64,000 bases of DNA. Source: Octopus vulgaris (lineage: Eukaryota). The notes beneath the pieces are model-generated. The model ran no database searches. It had not been told where the DNA came from and was given only the letters and a program-made list of their open reading frames with translations. Positions within the stretch are counted from its first letter, which is position 1. The number at the start of each line of letters is the position of its first letter. The translations under genes were made by a program, and so were the position numbers. Positions 10,300 through 55,409 of this stretch are shown piece by piece. Where the stretch lies: positions 121,396,001 to 121,460,000 of the forward strand of contig OX597814.1 in assembly GCA_951406725.2 (NCBI GenBank). Direction: 5' to 3'.

Positions 10300-15251
<4,952 letters not shown>

Positions 15252-15472
15252 TCCTTCATTAATTTCTCTAGACTGATTGAATATTATTATTGACATGGTT
15301 CACCTCCATCGTCCCCGCCACCAGTGCCATCATGGCAACATATTTTTATTGTTATTCTCATTACAAGATTTTTGTCTTCGATTTTTCAATTGGTTGTTTA
15401 TGATGACAGCGGTTGTCGTGTTATGATTCACTAACCTGTGGCATCATGTCCTTCAAACAAGCTACATTCCTT

Positions 15473-15508
<36 letters not shown>

Positions 15509-16348
15509 CATATACATATATATAAACACTTATACATGCATACACGCACACACATATATATGTGTGCATGAATGTATGTACGTATATATGTACAGATGAA
15601 GACAAAATTGATGAAAAGTTATGAATTTTCACAAAAACAAAACTAAAGAGGTAAAATTTGACGGTATTGAAGAAAAAGTTGAATAAAATATAAATTAAAC
15701 ATACATTTATGAAGATATGATAATAATGAAGGCTATGTTTGGAAACCTTTCAGTGGGATGATTATGGGTTCCACATATATGGAAGATCAACTGCATTAAA
15801 CTTATGGAGATTCATAGCCGGTAGCCCACTTCAGGTAACAAACATTAACAATGCCAATTTATGAAGGCTGATCAAATTTTTAAGAATAGGTGGGGAACAC
15901 CACAAATGCTTATTTGCACAATGTCATTAAACAGATGTCTAGCATTTCGTGGTAATATATCAACAGTTGATAATTTAGGCATTGCAGTTTTCGAATGTCA
16001 TATATTTAGAGGCTTGATTTAAGAGACTTGGACCTACAACCAGGAATGCCATATGTTTTGTAAGTATATATTCAAATATATGTATTTGTAATTGTTATGT
16101 ATATTTCTTGAAATATGTCTGTATGCAAGTTTTATTGAGATGGCCTGTTGTACACCTCACTGAGCGTAAAGCACTCACGAGAATACTGTTTACGTATACA
16201 TAGATAGGTGCAGTTAAAAATCAGAAATTTGACTAACGTGGGTGTTAGAGCAACAATTGCATATACAAAACACAAACACACACACACATACACAAACACC
16301 CATGCACATGCGCACACAAATATATGTATATGAATATATATATGTATA

Positions 16349-16386
<38 letters not shown>

Positions 16387-16403
16387 CATATGTATATATG
16401 TAT

Positions 16404-16447
<44 letters not shown>

Positions 16448-16666
16448 TTATGTATACATGTATATATGTATTTATATATAAATGTTTGTGTATGTATATG
16501 TGAATATATTCATGTATATCTACGGAAACTCTCTCTCCCTTTCTCTCTCTCTCACACACACGCACACACACACACTCACACGCATATATATATATATATG
16601 TATGTATATATATATATAGATAGAGATATAGATACGTAGATTTTATGACCATATATATATATATGA

Positions 16667-16698
<32 letters not shown>

Positions 16699-16749
16699 AG
16701 ATATGTACACAAACACACATATATGTACATATATATATATATGCATATA

Positions 16750-16802
<53 letters not shown>

Positions 16803-17040
16803 TTGTGTGCGTGTGTGTGTATATGTGTATGCATCAATAGGATTTACAATATATGGCGAATTATATCCGGCTCGATGTGCATTTTAATTCTTACTATGAA
16901 GTTACCATTAGCAAATACTTGCTTATATTTGTATACATTCATTCCCTGATCATACAGCATTGTATATTGCAGCGCAGACATTCTATACACACCATTTTCA
17001 AACATCGTCACCTTGTAGATTGATTTATAATCATCACGCA

Positions 17041-17084
<44 letters not shown>

Positions 17085-17126
17085 TACATATGTATATACA
17101 TGTATGCATATATATATATATGTATA

Positions 17127-17354
17127 TATTTCTTTACTACCCACAAGGGGCTAAACATAGAGGGGACAAACAAGGACAGTCAAAGGGATTAAGTCAATTA
17201 CATCGACCCAGTGCGAAACTGGTACTTTATTTATCGACCCCGAAAGGATGAAAGGCAAAGTCGACCTCGGCGGAATTTGAACTCAGAACGTAACGACAGA
17301 CGAAATACCGCTAAGCATTTCGCCCGGCGCGCTAACGTTTCTGCCAGCTCGCCA
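17127..17354 (-). mobile_element. tRNA-derived SINE, family A (young, full length) in (TA)n
   Basis: Minus strand: A-box-like TGGCAGAAACGTTAG, B-box GAGTTCAAATTCC, central CCGAGGTCGACTTTGCCTTTCATCCTTTCGGGGTCGAT, tail GTAAAGAAATA. Closely similar copies occur at 22048, 51732, 57113 and 61740-62320. Confidence 0.9.
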
Positions 17355-17395
17355 TTTATATATATATATATATATGCATACATACATATATATAC

Positions 17396-17483
<88 letters not shown>

Positions 17484-17932
17484 GCACAAATACATAAAAA
17501 TTCAGATATGGACACAAATACACAATTACATACATTTATACGTTTGTATATATATATATGCATGATTGCATATAGTGTCTGTGTCGATATATCTACATAC
17601 ATACGAAAAAATAAAAAAAATGAATTGCATCTAAATAAACATCATTTAAAATAAGTTTTATAAACGATTACGTGGAAAACCGCCATTTATATTTCGTGAT
17701 CGGGCCACGAAATAACTATAAAATTATTTTCCAAGATATCATCTAGGAAATCTCAAACAGTACTTTAATATCACAATGACTGTGGATATCCATTTCAAAA
17801 ATGTACAATATCACATGGAATTGTATAATTTCATACATATACATACACACATATACATGTATATATATACATATATGCATGTATTTATATATATATATGT
17901 TTATATATATATATATATACGCATATATATAC

Positions 17933-18016
<84 letters not shown>

Positions 18017-18079
18017 CTATATGTATATATATATATATGTATGTATTATGTATTTATATGTTTTCATTAGTATAACAGA

Positions 18080-20781
18080 TTATTATAACTGCGAGCAGCA
18101 TCCGAATACGTATGTCACACCTACACACACCAGACAGATTCTTATTCTTTAATTTCATTGTTTAACACAACAGTAATCTCGAAATATGAACAACATCAGC
18201 CATGTTTTTTTTTGTGAATAAGTGCAAACAATATTTGCAGTTTTAAAGTTAGTAAACAAACAGATTTGGCATGTCAATATCAAACTTATGGAATATTGTT
18301 GCATTTTCGTGCTTTGTACAATCAATATTTCAGTTTGGTCGGTTGCATGGTCGTACAATGTTCATTGCATACTGTGTTGTTACAGATTTTTTTATTCAGT
18401 GAATTACACCACATTTGATATGATTCGTATCTATATGGGTACATCCATTGTTTGGCTAATGGTATGACAGCAATATTAACAGTGCCTATTTTGCAAAGTA
18501 CTTTTTTAATATATTATTTGGTAGTAACAACACAGAAGACTATTATTATCTTATCTTAATTTACTCAATGAAAATATTTCATTAGATTTTGGAAAAATAA
18601 AATGATGAATTTATTTGCTACTGGATGTATACTGAACATTTTGATGACAATAAATAACTTTACATTGAAGTGGTTCACTAATACTGCCTGTCTTCCTAAA
18701 TAACAACTAACTTGTTGTCGAGTGTCATTTCAATTCTAATATATGATTATGTCCGGACAAACACGTCAAGACGATAAATAAAAAAAAAATCGTTGAAAAT
18801 ATTCTTAGTAAAGCACTGGATGTTGATAATTCCCTGATTTCTTGAAAACGTGAACAAGAATATATGTTTTTAATGATAGGGGAACTAATTTCACTCTCTT
18901 ATTTATGCTTCCGTTAATACTAATACGCTGTATTTTTAGGTGGATATTTCTTATCAAATAAGAACATCTATTGTATTATTCATCCCTCTCACTTAGATAA
19001 AACTGGTTTTAAAACCGTATTGTCCATCTATATTGCTTGTCCTCACATCATTTATAAATGCGTGCCATCATCCATTGAAGATTATATTTTGTAATATTCT
19101 CGTTTAATATTTCACTTGTTTGCATTGGCCAAAGTATATGCGGTAAACTTTATTCTTAAAGTTGTGTAAGCATTCCCGAAAGGAGCAGCAAACAAGATCA
19201 CTTGAAACCTAACCTTAATGAATGACTGGATATCATTTTATATTTATTTCCATTTTTGTTCCTTTTTTTTGTTTTTGATGTATGAAACATTGATTTGGCG
19301 ATACTTAACGTACTATATTTAAGGAAATTTTGAAACACATTAGCTTTAACCAGATGTCAGTAGTCCACTGTATAGTGTACTGATGTAAAGCATCAAATGT
19401 TAACTGGGTGCATTTTAATATATTTTAATGGAATAAATTGAAGAGAATGTAATTAAGGAATGTATCGTTGACGAAAATGTGCGACCACTTAAAACAGAAA
19501 AAAAAATAAAATATCCTCTTTAATAATAAAAGAAGACATCTTGCAGTAACATTTTGAAACTGGTGATGCTCTTTTATTTGTGTATGTGTGTACACAAAAA
19601 ATATAATTTAGTATTGAATTGCTTTTAAATATTAAACACAAACGATGGGAAAGCTAATATGTCTAGATTAGCGTGGCTGTATTTGTGAAATGTATTATAG
19701 TGTATCTTCGTCATTCATGTTTATGAAGCTAATTTATTTAGATAAAAGTAAGCACACATACAGATGTGAGTGTTAGAGATGATGGTAGTAAGAATTATAG
19801 ATGGGGAATAGTTTAAACAAATATTGAAATATATTTATATTAATTAAATTATTTTTTCTTATCAGTGTTTATATAACGTACTGTTTAATTATATATTCAA
19901 CTACCCTCAAAGGTGTTGTAAATGATTTTCACAGGCTTCTTGGTCTAATCATTTAGATTTGTTATGCAATACGGCTTTAGTGCATATTTTATGTCTGTGA
20001 TGCAATAGGGTAGCCTGAACACCGTCTTTCATTGGCGTTTATAACTGGTTTCCTTTCTATTATTATCCTCATTTCATTCCGGTGTTCAATACGATTGTCT
20101 CACAGGGCAGCTGTCAGCCGGAACTTACAGATTGCAACAGATGAAGAAGACTTCACCCTAATATGACAAACTAATCAACAACCACTTCATATCTTTGATA
20201 AAGATTTTGATTCTGGTTGTTTGTTACAAGATTCAGATTGATTCATCTGCTCTTTTAATAAAATATGAAAAAATATAAAAAATTTGTTGATTACTCTGGA
20301 GAAAACAATAAGATTTATAAAATAATTTAAAAATAAAACTATAAAATAAAATCAATAGTAGACTCTAGTGTTGATTTCAACCACAAAATATACACAACCA
20401 AATTGGAATTCCTTTTCAAAGTTTCCTTTTCTCACATTCACCCATCACTCGTTCAACACACGATATCTATTGAATTCTTCTTACAATCTTAAGAAAGGCT
20501 TGGAACTGATATTAGAATCATAATAAGGCTTCTAAGTCAAAACGTTCTTAATTAATCCAATTATATCTAATAATTCTTAATTATAATTTATAGCTTATAG
20601 TTAATTTTTAAAATTTATTTTATACTGAGGAAAATCCCGTATAAAAACATTTGAAGATTTGGTATAATTAAATCGATTTCAAACTTTTAATGAACACTCA
20701 TGGGGTGTTATTGTCATTAGCGTTATTATCATTATTAAAATTATATTATTATCACTATCATTCTCATTCTTAGTGTTATTA

Positions 20782-20858
<77 letters not shown>

Positions 20859-21058
20859 TTGCTCGCCATAAATCTTATTAACGTTCTTACCAGACATCAG
20901 TCTTTTATCATTCTCGTTATTGCTATTCTAAGCAACGCCATCATATTTGTAACATGCCAACATGCTCAACCTAATCAAATATATGTTCATTACATCACAG
21001 TAGGAGAACAGTGTACCGCATTATATCAAAACTTTGTAACAATTACTTTTACTTCCAG
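18080..21058 (-). other. Putative long 3' UTR of the host gene
   Basis: About 3 kb of unique AU-rich sequence without recognisable SINEs/LINEs (one TAA tract at 20780-20855), unlike its flanks. Several minus-strand AATAAA occur, e.g. 18396-18391. The end point is unknown. Confidence 0.35.
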
Positions 21059-21151
21059 CTATATTGCTGAACTCCAGTAAGGCATTTCGGGCGAATAAAA
21101 AGCCTTGTTTTCTGTTGTCGTGGGTGCTGCTTCATCCTCATCATTGGATCC
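21059..21151 (-). other. In-frame post-stop extension GSNDEDEAAPTTTENKAFYSPEMPYWSSAI* (candidate readthrough/stop-editing exon extension)
   Basis: 30 sense codons directly after the TAG, about 46% GC (41/90) versus about 31% in the next 90 nt. It ends in S-A-I and a second TAG (21061-21059). Confidence 0.5.
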
Positions 21152-21223
21152 CTAGATCTCCGTCTGGTAACCGTCTGTGTACCCATCAAAAGTTATCATC
21201 TGGTTAGGTGCTGTGTACGTGTA
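21152..21223 (-). CDS. Terminal coding exon of the same gene, YTYTAPNQMITFDGYTDGYQTEI*, ending in a class I PDZ-binding motif
   Basis: Strong acceptor ttttttgttttgttttatcttttctag| at 21224. Phase 0 gives 23 codons then TAG (21154-21152); the other two frames stop within 9 codons. The C-terminal T-E-I fits S/T-x-hydrophobic. Confidence 0.78.
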   Translation of the reverse strand, partial: YTYTAPNQMITFDGYTDGYQTEI

Positions 21224-22047
21224 CTAGAAAAGATAAAACAAAACAAAAAAGTTTATGAGTGATTTATATATCGGTTGAGCCGACGAGAGAACCTGTACGC
21301 GATCACTCGATTTGCTAGAAATAGCAACGAAATCCTTTCTCAACACTCACGGCTTAATTAAACTACAATGTCATATCAAGCTTACAAGATGTGATAGTTA
21401 CGAGTAGAATATCTTTGATTACGAGTCTAATTAACAAGGGCTAACATGTGAGTAAATTACACTACATGTTGCTTATTAGAAGCCCAATTGTTTTATTTCA
21501 GTTTTTTTTATTCTAATTAAGAATAAAATTTCAAATTTACTGAGTGTTTTTTTCAAATCATATGACGCTAGTGTGTATTTTCCAAAAGCTTTAATAGTAG
21601 TACACTAACAGGGAACTAGTATTAGAAGAATAATAATAACTTTATATATCTAAATGGTACTATTGATTTAAGATAGAAATTAAAATATTGCCTGATAGTC
21701 AGGAAAGTTATTTGGCGTCATTAAACTCAAAGGATTCTCGTATGTTAATGATAGCAATCAGCGATATGCAAATATTCGACAGTCAAGAAATAAGAACAGT
21801 TCGTACGTGAGAGAGAAACAGAAAGAGAAGTGTGGGAGGAAATACTTTGGGGTAAAAAGAATAATAAGCACGGAACTACAAACAAAGATCATTGTCTTAA
21901 AAACTAGAGTCAAGAATGAATCCTGCTTTCCGTAAAATAGTTTTGGTTGGCGAATGAGATACTAATGCGAAAAGCTATTTTCTGAACTTATTATATTATA
22001 CTAAATCTTGAAATTTTGATAACATTTCTATCATCCCAGCTATTTCT

Positions 22048-22274
22048 TATTTCTTTATTGCCCACAAGGGGCTAAACATAGTGGGAACAAACAAGGACAG
22101 ACAAAGGGATTAAGTCGATTACATCGACCCCAGTGCGTAACTGGTACTTAATTTATCGACTCCGAAAGGATGAAAGGCAAAATCGACCTCGGCAGAATTT
22201 CAACTTAGAACGTGATGGCAGACGAAATACCGCCAAGCATTTCGCCCGGCGTTTTAACGTTTCTGCCACCTCAC
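22048..22274 (-). mobile_element. tRNA-derived SINE family A with 16-bp TSD
   Basis: Same family. TSD catcccagcta(t/c)ttct at 22032-22047 and 22275-22290. Confidence 0.92.
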
Positions 22275-22484
22275 CATCCCAGCTACTTCTGTAACAATCA
22301 TAATTTCTGCTAGCGTGCGCCAAAGGACTTATGCGCAAGAAAATTAGTTGCCGTACAACAATTCATTTATTACAGAAATTTATGTAAGGACGATGTTAAC
22401 TTCGTGTATATATATATTACTAGAGAAGAGAAGTACTTTTCATATAAACTTATAAATTGTTTTATTTTATATTACAACAAAATT

Positions 22485-22640
22485 CTTAGCTGCACTGCTT
22501 CCGTCTTTTCGTACTAAGTTCAAATCCTGCCGAGCTCGATTTTGCATTTCATCCCCAGTTGAGTACTGTGGTCAATGTAATCGATTTATTCCTCCCCGGA
22601 AAATGCTAGCCTTGTGCCAAAATATTTGAAATCAATATTA
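22485..22640 (+). mobile_element. Decayed older SINE copy, inverted relative to the 22048 copy
   Basis: aagttcaaatcctgccgagctcgattttgcatttcatcc...gtaatcgatt...ccttgtgccaaaa matches the old-subfamily body. Confidence 0.65.
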
Positions 22641-23021
22641 CAACGCTCTCTCAATTCCCATGTTATTGTCTTAAATACTAAAATTACTCAGGATATTGTA
22701 TCTCTAACAAAAAGGAAGACTCCCGTGCTTGGAAAAACCTTTCATCATTCGTTTGCTCGACCGCGGCTGACTTGAGCTACCACACGAACAAATTCTTTCT
22801 TGATAAATTAACCAGGAAATGCAACAGAAAGAAAATTGCAATATTAATATGATATATACAATAACATATTATTGATATTAATTCATTAGCGAAATTTCCA
22901 AATTAATATGTATAATTTCAATTTTTGCATATAAGAATTGAATTTTATTTATCAGGCAAATAAAATTCTTGAATATTATTAATCGTTTCAATATATAATT
23001 TACATAGGAAATGCATTTGTT

Positions 23022-23295
<274 letters not shown>

Positions 23296-23329
23296 CCATA
23301 ACCTTCTTAACGACAATGTATAAAATACT

Positions 23330-24108
23330 AACATCTAACTTGACTGAATATGCCTAAATTCTTTTTAATAGAAAGTGGCAATACTTTCGTCATACCGGTC
23401 GTGACTTACAGCTTCAAAATCATTAACTCGTCAATTACTGAAATATGTAATCTCGACAGAAAAATACGAATATTGTTGACAATGCATATAATGCACCACC
23501 CTAAGGAAGATATGGAACGACTTCTTCTGCCAAGAAAAGTGAATGGCCATGGACTTTTACAACTGGAATTAACTAAGAAGATTGCCACAATTGACATAAA
23601 CACCTACCTGAAAGACTCTGATGACTGGATGTTAAAACTTTCTTAAAGCACGGAAACAAGTAAACATCATACTTAGTAACAAATCAGGCAAAGGAAAATC
23701 TAAATAAATTCTTAATACAACAAATGTCAAAACACGCACAGAAAAACGCTAAGCGTATGTAAACCCTTGCTAAAACTGCTACCTTACATATTCTTACTGA
23801 TAAATGACAAGAAAAACCTCTCAATGGCAAATACCCAAAGAGCACTAATAATACCGACGTTGACAAAGCCCTTATTCCACAATGTTTACTGTCTCCTGGC
23901 TTAAAATCATAAACAGAGGTGTTTATCATAGCAGCCCAAGATCAAAGTCAACCTACAAAGAGTTACTAGGCCAACATATTAAAGAACGGCCGTAACCCAT
24001 CATGTCGTGTATGTAAACAGCAAAAACGAAAACATTGATCATGTTGTCTCCAAGTGCAGTCATCTGGCGCCTACAGAGTATCTCAACAGGCATGATAGAG
24101 CAGTGCAT
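23330..24108 (+). mobile_element. Decayed R4/Dong-like LINE fragment (post-RT region to CCHC/RHD)
   Basis: NTFVIPVVTYSF...LDRKIR...MHHPKEDMERLLLPRKVNGHGL, then AAQDQ, CRVC and EYLNRHD. It is a diverged paralogue of 26540-27270, with stops and frameshifts. Confidence 0.85.
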
Positions 24109-24214
24109 TGATGGAATGCCATCGTCAATTTTATCAACTTTGTAATTGGCGAAAAGAAAAAGAGAGAGAAAAAGGAAAGAAAAAGGAAATAGACAAAGGA
24201 AAATATTTAATCAA

Positions 24215-24750
24215 ATAGTTTTGTGTAAATTTGATGATATTCGCCTGTCGTTTTATTCTTTCCTCCAGTGCATGATGTTAATTATCTGCAAACATTTTTC
24301 TCCTCATGCATTTTGAGTATTCAATGTGTAGGAGATTCAGTATATTTTCTGAGAATATGCACTTACAAGTCTATTTCAAAATTGTTGCCGTTTGAAGCAA
24401 AATGTTAACCAAGTTCTGTCAATCTACTGTTATTGTGCCCGACGTCATATCTGTGCCCGACGTCATATATGTGCCCATTAAATCGTTTGTTTAATTGTTG
24501 TGTTGTACAACCAACATAAATCAAGTTGTGTTTCGTGCATTCTGCCGCGTACACCAAATGAGAAGCTGTACATGGCCCACATTCTGTATAAATCATAACA
24601 TTTCTTTTATGATACCTGATGGAGTTCACTTGGCTCTTGTTGTTGCACAATGAACAGCGCTCACCTCTCTTGCGGCTGTTTTTCAAGATACAGCGTGCAG
24701 ATAATCCAACGTTAGTTTTCTTGGAGTCAGAAATAGAGTTCAATAGAGCT
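24215..24750 (-). mobile_element. Penelope-like element GIY-YIG endonuclease remnant
   Basis: ORF 24405-24743 contains CSLC...C...LVYAAECTKHNLIYVGCTTQQLNKRFNGH...ELG*HF, the GIY-YIG layout of Penelope-like elements. Confidence 0.8.
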
Positions 24751-24799
24751 TTTATAAATTATGAACTGAATTATGAACTAAATTATGAACTGAATTACA

Positions 24800-27700
24800 T
24801 ATTGACGAAATTAAACATTCGGTAAGGGATAAAGGGAACGAAGTTGCAGCTAAAGAAGATACTACAGAGGAAATAATTATAGACCAACCTACGTCCAATG
24901 AAAATGCCGTAATGATAGAAACAATCAATGTAACTGATAAGCAACGTGAAATACTCTCTGAACCTACCATAGACACCAAGGCAAATGAAAATCAAATAGA
25001 TGAAGAAAGTCAAACACAAATTTATACAACTGAACAGCATGAACTAAATAAACAAATTATGATTGAATGGTTGAAAATTAAAGAAAACAGTATGGTGACG
25101 CTCTCCCAAAAATTCACAACTCTAATTAAACCTGAAGTAATTGGTAAAATTCGCCTTGCACTTAACGATATAATTTCAGCTAATGATATTGATATTACAG
25201 ATGTCAACCACCTGTACTGTGCAGCCACGAAAATCTCAATGATTCTATGTGTTGAAAAGATTAGAAAACGACAACATTCCCACAAAATGCCTACTTGGCA
25301 AGGGCGTATCCAACATTAAATTCAGCTACTTAGGTCTGACAAAGAACGTTTTAAAAAACCTTAAGTTTGACAAGACTATCAAACCTACAAAAAAATAATT
25401 GAAAATTGAAGAAAAATATATGAAAACCATACTTGACATCGATACCTCCATAGACACTATCAAACAAAAATATGTGCTAAATCTGCTCGCATAGCACGGT
25501 ATGAAAAGCGCGTTAGATTCTTCAAGGACAACATGTTCAAAAATAACCCAAAACATTTTTACAGGATGATAGGGAAATTACCAGTTACGGTAAAATCTGA
25601 AGGGCAGTAATTTTGGAATAAAATTTGGACAGGATTAAATAAAATACATAATAAAAAAAGCCCCTTGGATTGATAGAATATCTACTGACTTAGACTTCTT
25701 AGAAGATCTAAAGTGGAGGAGTACTAAGGTAGAGGATCTAAGATCTGCTCGCAGGAAATCAAGCATATTGATGTCTCAAGAAAAGTTTCAAGAACATTTT
25801 TAACTTCTAGTTGAATGCCTTCCCAGAGAATGATGAACTGCTAAAATCACTTTACAATAATGTTTTGCAACAAGCAAGTATGATTCCCTCTTGGCTACTT
25901 AATGGTGTTTATGGTTATAAATATCAGTTACTAATCAATAAGATGATCATGGAAGATTGCCACAAACGACACAAAAACTTATCGATAGCCTGGGTAGACT
26001 AAAAAATAAAGCTCTTGATAATCTACCACATAGCTCGATTAAGAAATACCTGGAAATGTATAGAATAACACCTACTCTGGAGATGTGAGTATTTTATGTA
26101 GCATTTTCCAGGGTGACTCTCTATCACCGCTCCTCTTTTGTCTAGCCGTAACACTTCTCTGCTCGATGATGTACAATATAAATCATCTTTTTTACATGGA
26201 TGATTTCAAGCTCTTTGCAAAAAATTACCAACAGCTACAGGGCTTACTAGCAATTGTTAAATAATTCAGTGATGATATCAAGATGCAATTTGGCCCCGAT
26301 AAATGTTCAAAAGCTATCTTTATCAGAGGAAAAATGACAGAAATATCCAACGTTAATCTCGGCCAGCACAATGTTATAAAGGAGTTAGAACCAACAGAGA
26401 GCGACAAATACCTACGGGTATCAGAACGTAATGGAATCAAACATTCAATGATAAGGAAAAAGATCAGAAGAGAATATTATCGCAAGGTAAGGGCAATACT
26501 AAAGACAGAGCTGAATGCAAGAAACAGGATATAAGCAATCAATAGTTTCGTCATACCGGTCGTGACTTACAGTTTCAAAATTATTAAATCGTCAAATACT
26601 AAAATATGTAATCTCGACAGAAAAATACGAAAATTGTTGACAATGCATAGAAGTCACTACCCTAAGGAAGGTATAGAACGATTTTACCTGCCAATAAAAG
26701 AGGATGGCCGTGGATTCTTTTACAACTGGAATTAACAATAAGATTGCCACAATTGGCCTAAACATCTACCTGAAAAACTTTGATGGCTGGATGTTAAAAC
26801 TTTCTTAAGGCACGGAAACAAGAAAGCATCATACTAAGTAACAAAACAGGCAAAGGAATATCTAAATGAAATCTAAATACAACACATCGCGGAATTAGAT
26901 GTGCTGGAAACAAGCACAGGAAACGCTAAGCGTATGAACACCCGTGCTAAAATTGCTGCCTTAGATATTCTTACTGATAAATGACAAGAAAAATCTTTCA
27001 ACGGCAAATACCCTAAGAGAGCTAATAAAGGAAAGCCCTTGCCTAACAATGGTTAGTGTTTTCTAGCTTAAAATCGGAAACAGAAGTGTTTATCAAAGCA
27101 GCCCATGATCAATGTCTACCTACAAGGAACTACCAAGCCAGCATATTAAAGAACGGCAGTAGCCCAGCATGTCGTGTATGTAAACAACAAAATGAATTCA
27201 TTGATCATGTTGTCTCCATGTGCAGTCATCTTGCGCCTACAGAGTATCTCAACAGGCACGATAGAACTGCACAATATATTCACTGGGTAAACTGCAAAAG
27301 CCTGAACCTGTCCCATATTAAAGACTGTTGGGAACTCAAACCAGCTGCAGTGCTTGAAAATGATCACATCTCACTCCTCTGGAATTTCACCATTCAAACT
27401 AACAGAAAGACAGATGCGAATAGGTCAGACATTTTGTTGAAAGACTTCAGACCAAAATCATGCCTTCTCGTTGATATGACTGTGCCAGTCGACATAAATG
27501 TACGTCAAGACCAACGGAAAACTGAGCAAGTATAAAGATCTTGAAATAGAAATTAGCAAAATGTGGAACCTGAAGCCTAAAATGATACCTGTTGTCATAG
27601 GTGCCCTAGGAATGATAGCAAAAGGGACTGATTCCTACCTAGCTCAGATACAAGGAAACCCCAAAATGGCAGATATTCAAAAGATAGTTCTCATGGGAAC

Positions 27701-55319: not shown

Positions 55320-55409
55320 ACCTCCATTTTCAGGTTCTGCATATCCCCCGGTATATCGCATTGACGCTCTTCGAGCACGCTTTACATTTTTAGCTTTCTT
55401 CGCCATTTG
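55320..55409 (-). CDS. Internal (probably penultimate) coding exon of a minus-strand host gene, likely an AMPA-type ionotropic glutamate receptor cytoplasmic tail
   Basis: Minus strand: polypyrimidine acceptor ttttttctctattttcag|, then 90 nt open in phase 0 (QMAKKAKNVKRARRASMRYTGGYAEPENGG), then a perfect |GTAAGT donor. It is a GC-richer unique island in AT-rich DNA and joins in frame to the exon at 21223. The iGluR identity rests on my recall of molluscan GluR tails (basic post-M4 segment, YTYT motif, T-E-V/I end) and is less certain (~0.55) than the exon call. Confidence 0.8.

Follow-up and report, generated by a model that had tools for sequence, protein, structure and literature searches.

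How a single last exon might offer a receptor two different ends is the question raised by a locus in the genome of Octopus vulgaris. The window that we analyzed, a stretch of 64,000 nucleotides (contig OX597814.1, positions 121,396,001 to 121,460,000 of the forward strand), carries on its minus strand a last exon of a gene for a predicted AMPA-like ionotropic glutamate receptor, in which the stop codon is followed by 30 further codons in the same frame and by a second stop. We favor, at a probability of roughly 0.65, the reading that in some of the transcripts ADAR editing converts the first UAG to a codon for tryptophan, lengthening the tail by 31 residues and replacing one predicted PDZ-binding end by another. 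Translation of window positions 21223-21059 (minus strand) gives YTYTAPNQMITFDGYTDGYQTEI, a stop, GSNDEDEAAPTTTENKAFYSPEMPYWSSAI and a second stop, which reproduces the YQTEI-TAG, the 30 in-frame codons and the second TAG of a preliminary description of this DNA; both stops are TAG (21154-21152 and 21061-21059). The middle A of the first TAG is window position 21153 (G000:C1:121417153), where an edit would appear as T>C on the plus strand. The elements concerned are listed here with the Octopus sequencing runs (X1, X2, and X7) and the proteins that bear on them, namely isoforms X1 of O. bimaculoides (P0125) and O. sinensis (P0127) and three proteins assigned to a relative lineage (P0129, P0134, and P0174).

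55320..55409, minus strand: penultimate coding exon of the glutamate receptor tail (QMAKK...ENGG), with phase-0 donor GTAAGT; matches P0125 and P0127 and is joined to 21223 in contigs of X1, X2, and X7.
21224..21248, minus strand: acceptor of the last exon, an AG preceded by a polypyrimidine tract (14 of the 16 bases from -5 to -20 are pyrimidines); junction present in contigs.
21155..21223, minus strand: coding part of the alternative last exon, 23 residues, with class I PDZ-type end T-E-I; 100% match to the ends of P0125 and P0127, 20 of 23 residues identical in the relative.
21152..21154, minus strand: first stop, TAG, with the candidate editing site at its A, 21153 (UIG, in place of UAG, would be read as Trp); W here in P0134, protein end in P0129 and P0174, unedited in the contigs of all three Octopus runs examined among those guessed to be RNA.
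21062..21151, minus strand: 30-codon in-frame extension with an acidic start and class I PDZ-type end S-A-I; 25 of 30 residues identical to P0134 without an indel; present in spliced contigs.
21059..21061, minus strand: second stop, TAG; P0134 ends at the same residue.

The genome measures 2.8 Gb, and ligand-gated channel exons occur some 255 kb upstream of the window in the same orientation, one of them 100% identical to Octopus proteins named glutamate receptor 2. The exons of isoform P0123 map one after another on the minus strand, from C1:122.05 Mb into the window, and P0125 and P0127 both use the exon at 55409-55320, then the exon at 21223, and stop at YQTEI. The domains PF01094, PF10613, and PF00060 score above cut-off in P0127, and its nearest solved structures are GluA4 and GluA2. 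From these sequences the gene is predicted to encode an AMPA-like ionotropic glutamate receptor, with amino-terminal, ligand-binding, and channel domains in one chain that includes the exons described here; the domains, the structures, and the 100% tail match to P0125 and P0127 bear out the glutamate receptor identity first proposed for the tail. The Octopus RNA evidence consists of assembled contigs of three runs among 14 candidate holders, their status as RNA being a guess, and in all three the contigs splice 55320 to 21223 and continue through both stops. A further alternative last exon with its own acceptor, encoding FQTLDAAAQRYSLYKT followed by TAG and by 19 open codons past that stop, lies about 106 kb further downstream (L003 1533-1483, minus strand, from G000:C1:121311184 downward). 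The exon at 21223-21152 had been taken for the terminal exon; its splicing from 55320 holds, but in view of the second terminal exon it is an alternative last exon and not the sole one. The gene has several spliced tails, three more of which leave directly after the last membrane helix, with exons outside the window (P0126, P0007, P0130, P0131, P0133; P0124, P0128; P0121), and one of these three, …W(Q/H)E(N/S)IYKRW, is kept in both lineages.

The evidence that carries our reading comes from the second lineage, a cluster of six Logan proteins and one ENA fragment. Its full-length proteins are 79-80% identical to P0127 (Argonauta, 93%), and a quick tree, in which the abalone and oyster placements are weakly supported, puts it as the sister branch to Octopus plus Argonauta with a support of 100; the relative is probably a squid or cuttlefish. 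Two of its members carry this exon: P0129 (945 aa, two contigs) ends at YQTEI, and P0134 (976 aa, one Logan contig) continues as YQTEI-W-GSSEEEEAAPTTTEDKAFYSQEMPYWSSAI to the same second stop, with the same YWSSAI end as the Octopus extension. A 976-residue frame on a contig of 3,258 bases, set against the span of the gene in Octopus, means that P0134 must be spliced RNA, and it holds the exon, the W, and the extension in an uninterrupted row. Octopus and P0134 share 25 of 30 extension residues (83%), without a gap and to the same last residue, so that the frame preservation for which the preliminary description had called is found in one relative. This is on par with the preceding coding exon (20/23) and above the penultimate exon (20/29) and the amino-terminal domain (284/395). 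Random base changes would be expected to give less conservative replacements than the five seen, N-S, D-E, D-E, N-D, and P-Q (P 0.015; P 0.06 in a stricter count that leaves out N-S and N-D as possible edits). A 70-aa open reading frame on an ENA contig of 90,669 bases (P0174) runs from intron-like sequence into an exon identical to that of the relative and ends at YQTEI, and this genomic-type frame indicates, by the protein end rather than the codon, that the stop is in the DNA of the relative's lineage. Neither a protein-based nor a pattern-based scan of metagenomes turned up DNA of the relative. Abalone and oyster receptors, whose orthology is weakly supported, end at the matching place with NQTEI and KNTEL. 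The conserved hidden tail is real, and it is likely opened by stop-codon editing.

The W in P0134 does not stand alone. Across 945 aligned residues, P0129 and P0134 show four differences, each compatible with an A-to-G change, and the part shared by the six Logan members has six variable residues (Q315R, T695A, I868M, M888V, K894R, and K897R, the last read from the pairwise alignment, the multiple alignment being one column off there). At all six, Octopus carries the form with A and the variant is the one with G, a pattern with a rough chance of 4e-5 to 8e-5 at a rate taken from small samples; the Logan members therefore look like one species with edited transcripts, and stop-to-W is a seventh change of the same A-to-G kind. 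The variants are carried by P0129 (residue 695), P0134 (residues 315, 868, and 897), and P0007 (residues 888 and 894), and, judging by sequence, all six are likely recoding sites in the relative. T695A lies at the end of the SYTANLAAFLT gating stretch and I868M in the last membrane helix (5 of 6 members), and the Q/R-site stretch reads MQQG in all aligned members. The candidate site is in a favorable context, the neighbor preference of ADAR being A or U on the 5′ side and G on the 3′ side, which U-A-G matches (PMC10590747, in the text available), and UAG-to-UGG stop-loss events exist as a class in coleoid editomes and are handled in the pipeline of PMC8382921, so far as its available text goes. 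A-to-I editing thus appears a better source of the W in P0134 than a DNA allele, and Octopus probably edits the same site, in under about half of the transcripts in the runs examined.

Several results weigh against this reading. In the contigs of the three Octopus runs (3 of the 14 candidates) the first stop reads TAG, with no other letter at 21153, and contigs lose minority variants, so that these contigs only bound editing below about half in those samples; stop-loss editing, the first mechanism of the preliminary description, accordingly has the W of a relative in its favor but the Octopus contigs against it. The single DNA run examined, X17, gave no coverage of the exon. The exact W form of the Octopus tail is absent from the protein collection, where none of four tail forms derived from the window was matched exactly. 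Word-index protein searches with the W-read tail returned nothing at 96-2000 or at 29-95 residues, although these are weak blanks, since HMMER found P0174 (70 aa), which shares many words with the query. In the relative, W is present in one of the three contigs that carry the exon and is known as a protein translation only; P0134, P0129, and P0174 are from unmatched samples, and P0174 may be of another species. The conservation of the extension is seen in two lineages only. A search of the window, with imperfect or long-range duplexes and the spliced context outside its scope, found no duplex partner above shuffled controls: the local fold at the site has a z of 0.06, the best duplex reaches -43.4 kcal/mol against -38.0 to -46.3 in 20 shuffles (15000-27000), and the longest inverted match in the window is 12-14 bases with an E of 0.48 or worse. 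Finally, a squid proteomics preprint ranks stop-to-Trp editing as "non-existent" (10.64898/2025.12.15.694494), its available text not making visible whether such extensions were included in its database. One further match to the tail query, P0173, is a repeat protein of chance resemblance and was discarded.

From the Octopus genome alone, the extension is suggestive, no more. The GC content is 45.8% in the coding part and 45.2% in the extension, falling to 32.0% in the next 100 bases and 34.3% in the next 169; the values of the GC step reported earlier are thus confirmed, but the step by itself is not significant (Fisher p 0.075 and 0.086), and we reject it as stand-alone evidence. At least 30 open codons after a stop are expected by chance in 7-18% of cases, and together with a class I PDZ-type end in 0.2-0.6% per stop. 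At that rate several chance cases are expected per genome, and it is conservation in the relative that singles out this one. The extension opens in both lineages with a serine and then a run of acidic residues (GSNDEDE in one, GSSEEEE in the other; window 21151-21131, minus strand), much like a casein kinase 2 site. The second stop, too, is a UAG in a U-A-G context, and after it come 10 open codons (LEVKVIVTKF) and TGA (window 21061-21026, minus strand).

The strongest rival holds that the edit is a bystander in a stretch conserved at the RNA level, as an editing structure or a 3′ untranslated region element, the long protein being noise or degraded and the second PDZ-like end a matter of chance. 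It draws on the many places at which the relative's transcript appears to be edited, on the argument that much coleoid recoding is nonadaptive (PMC6881472, in its available part), on the view that fungal stop-loss editing is mostly error (PMC13684035), and on the lack of stop-to-Trp peptides in the available text of the squid proteomics preprint (10.64898/2025.12.15.694494). Conservation for RNA does not, however, readily explain 30 codons kept without an indel or a stop, the conservative replacements (P 0.015, or 0.06 in the stricter count), the two D-to-E changes at third positions, or the invariant YWSSAI end, and neither the local fold nor the duplex search yielded a strong RNA structure. 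We consider it unlikely.

Ribosomal readthrough of an unedited UAG could instead be the main way in which the tail is reached, at least in Octopus, editing in the relative being a second route. It would account for an extension that is conserved while all three Octopus runs give TAG in their contigs, but readthrough cannot write W into a cDNA translation such as P0134, the stop context is UAG-GGA where leaky stops usually have UGA-CUAG, and the structure searches revealed nothing that would stimulate it. Of the second mechanism put forward in the preliminary description there is left a possible extra route in Octopus; as the principal route we judge it quite improbable.

It is more doubtful still that the W in P0134 stems from an allele in the DNA, from a difference between species, or from faulty assembly, the stop then being polymorphic or the extension the remnant of a tail that was once longer. 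The W is in a single contig whose DNA is unmatched, and P0134, P0129, and P0174 may come from more than one species, all of which such an account could use. Set against it are the six other variable residues, every one A-to-G in the expected direction, the end of P0174 at the stop, and the abalone and oyster receptors, whose ends at the matching place make the short end look old, their orthology being weakly supported. Last, the proposal that the AG of the stop serves as an alternative acceptor joining ENGG to GSND is in frame (phase 0 donor at 55320) and would suit a gene with several alternative tails, much as the GluN1 C2/C2' tails of the NMDA receptor arise by splicing at alternative acceptors, but we dismiss it as very improbable, and with it the third mechanism of the preliminary description, because the contigs of all three runs lack a 55320-to-21151 junction, pyrimidines fill 6 of the 16 positions there but 14 of 16 at the real acceptor, none of nine annotated octopod cluster members has such a tail, and P0134 retains the whole exon, then W, ahead of the extension.

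If stop-codon editing operates as we propose, what would it change in the receptor? The class I PDZ pattern is Thr/Ser-X-large aliphatic at a free C-terminus (PMC2806832, in the text available). T-E-I and S-A-I both fit it, as first described, and both are kept in the relative; each end also has an aromatic residue four places before its last (Y-Q-T-E-I and W-S-S-A-I). An unedited mRNA would give a tail ending in Y-Q-T-E-I, and an edited one W plus 30 residues ending in W-S-S-A-I, a long form that we expect to be translated and stable. In that form T-E-I would lose its free carboxyl end, and the acidic linker would place S-A-I 31 residues further out. In GluA4 a single extra residue past the motif blocks PDZ binding (PMC2806832, same portion), from which it follows that the long form would silence the first motif and present the second at the tip of its acidic linker. 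The two ends may bind PDZ scaffolds with different preference, to judge from their residues, and their exchange could tune anchoring or trafficking by tissue or condition. The matching ends in abalone and oyster suggest, within the limits of their weakly supported orthology, that the short end came first and the extension was added later; the edit would then diversify the receptor and not repair it.

Such a switch would resemble several known systems. Known AMPA receptor edits (Q/R and R/G) alter sense codons, not a stop. At the hepatitis delta virus amber/W site, ADAR1 likewise changes UAG to Trp, and the 19-20 residues thereby gained at the C-terminus, which have a role of their own, turn the small into the large delta antigen (PMC10590747, available text); the octopus case differs in being a cellular neural gene with 31 residues and a predicted PDZ-ligand swap, and no defined duplex was found in the search of the window. 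Fungal stop-loss A-to-I editing, as in Fusarium Dbf2 and PUK1, also gives a C-terminal extension by UAG to UIG in a cellular mRNA (PMC13123824 and PMC4817773, available portions), but it is ADAR-independent and tied to the sexual stage, and the Dbf2 extension is a destabilizing tag (PMC13123824, same portion), unlike the octopus extension, whose sequence is conserved and whose last residues form a binding-type motif. The coleoid recoding editome shares with our case the A-to-G recoding of neural mRNAs and stop-to-W as a class (PMC8382921, available text), and ionotropic glutamate receptors are among the heavily recoded squid genes (PMC4384741, available text). Vertebrate GluA2 and GluA4 resemble it in that one receptor gene makes several tails, long and short, with different PDZ ligands (PMC2806832, available text); those are produced by splicing, whereas the octopus tail would use editing. 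We found no account of this site in the literature, in a search outside which the full coleoid editome tables lay, so that the site may be a row in such a table. The available text of PMC4384741, PMC9068888, PMC9282427, and PMC5558901 names neither the site nor the conserved extension nor the PDZ change, and the supplements of PMC4384741, PMC8382921, and PMC9068888, apparently without full editome tables, have no "stop" rows.

Elsewhere in the window, positions 23344-27535 hold broken open frames that resemble pieces of a non-LTR retrotransposon. A short interspersed repeat has several intronic copies (about 22290-22040 and 62320-61750, minus strand), and AT, AAT, and AGT microsatellites are numerous throughout.

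The site lies on the part of an AMPA-type receptor that controls anchoring and trafficking, in a field where the adaptive value of coleoid recoding is disputed and stop-loss editing has been argued to be mostly error. Its protein readout is all or none, 31 extra residues and a new last residue, which makes it easier to test than most recoding sites, and the extension peptide AFYSPEMPYWSSAI, if detected, would be a sign that the tail is translated. The stop and the 30-residue tail have both been kept in two distant lineages, where neither a fixed stop nor a fixed Trp seems to have prevailed, as expected if both products are useful. It is possible, and we put it forward tentatively, that an ADAR-operated stop switch in this receptor, which exchanges PDZ ligands and in which the level of editing sets synaptic anchoring, dates in coleoids from before the split between octopods and their sister lineage and has been retained since. 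If true, a cellular gene of the nervous system would have its own version of the hepatitis delta amber/W switch, and adaptive, diversifying editing could be tested cleanly on it.
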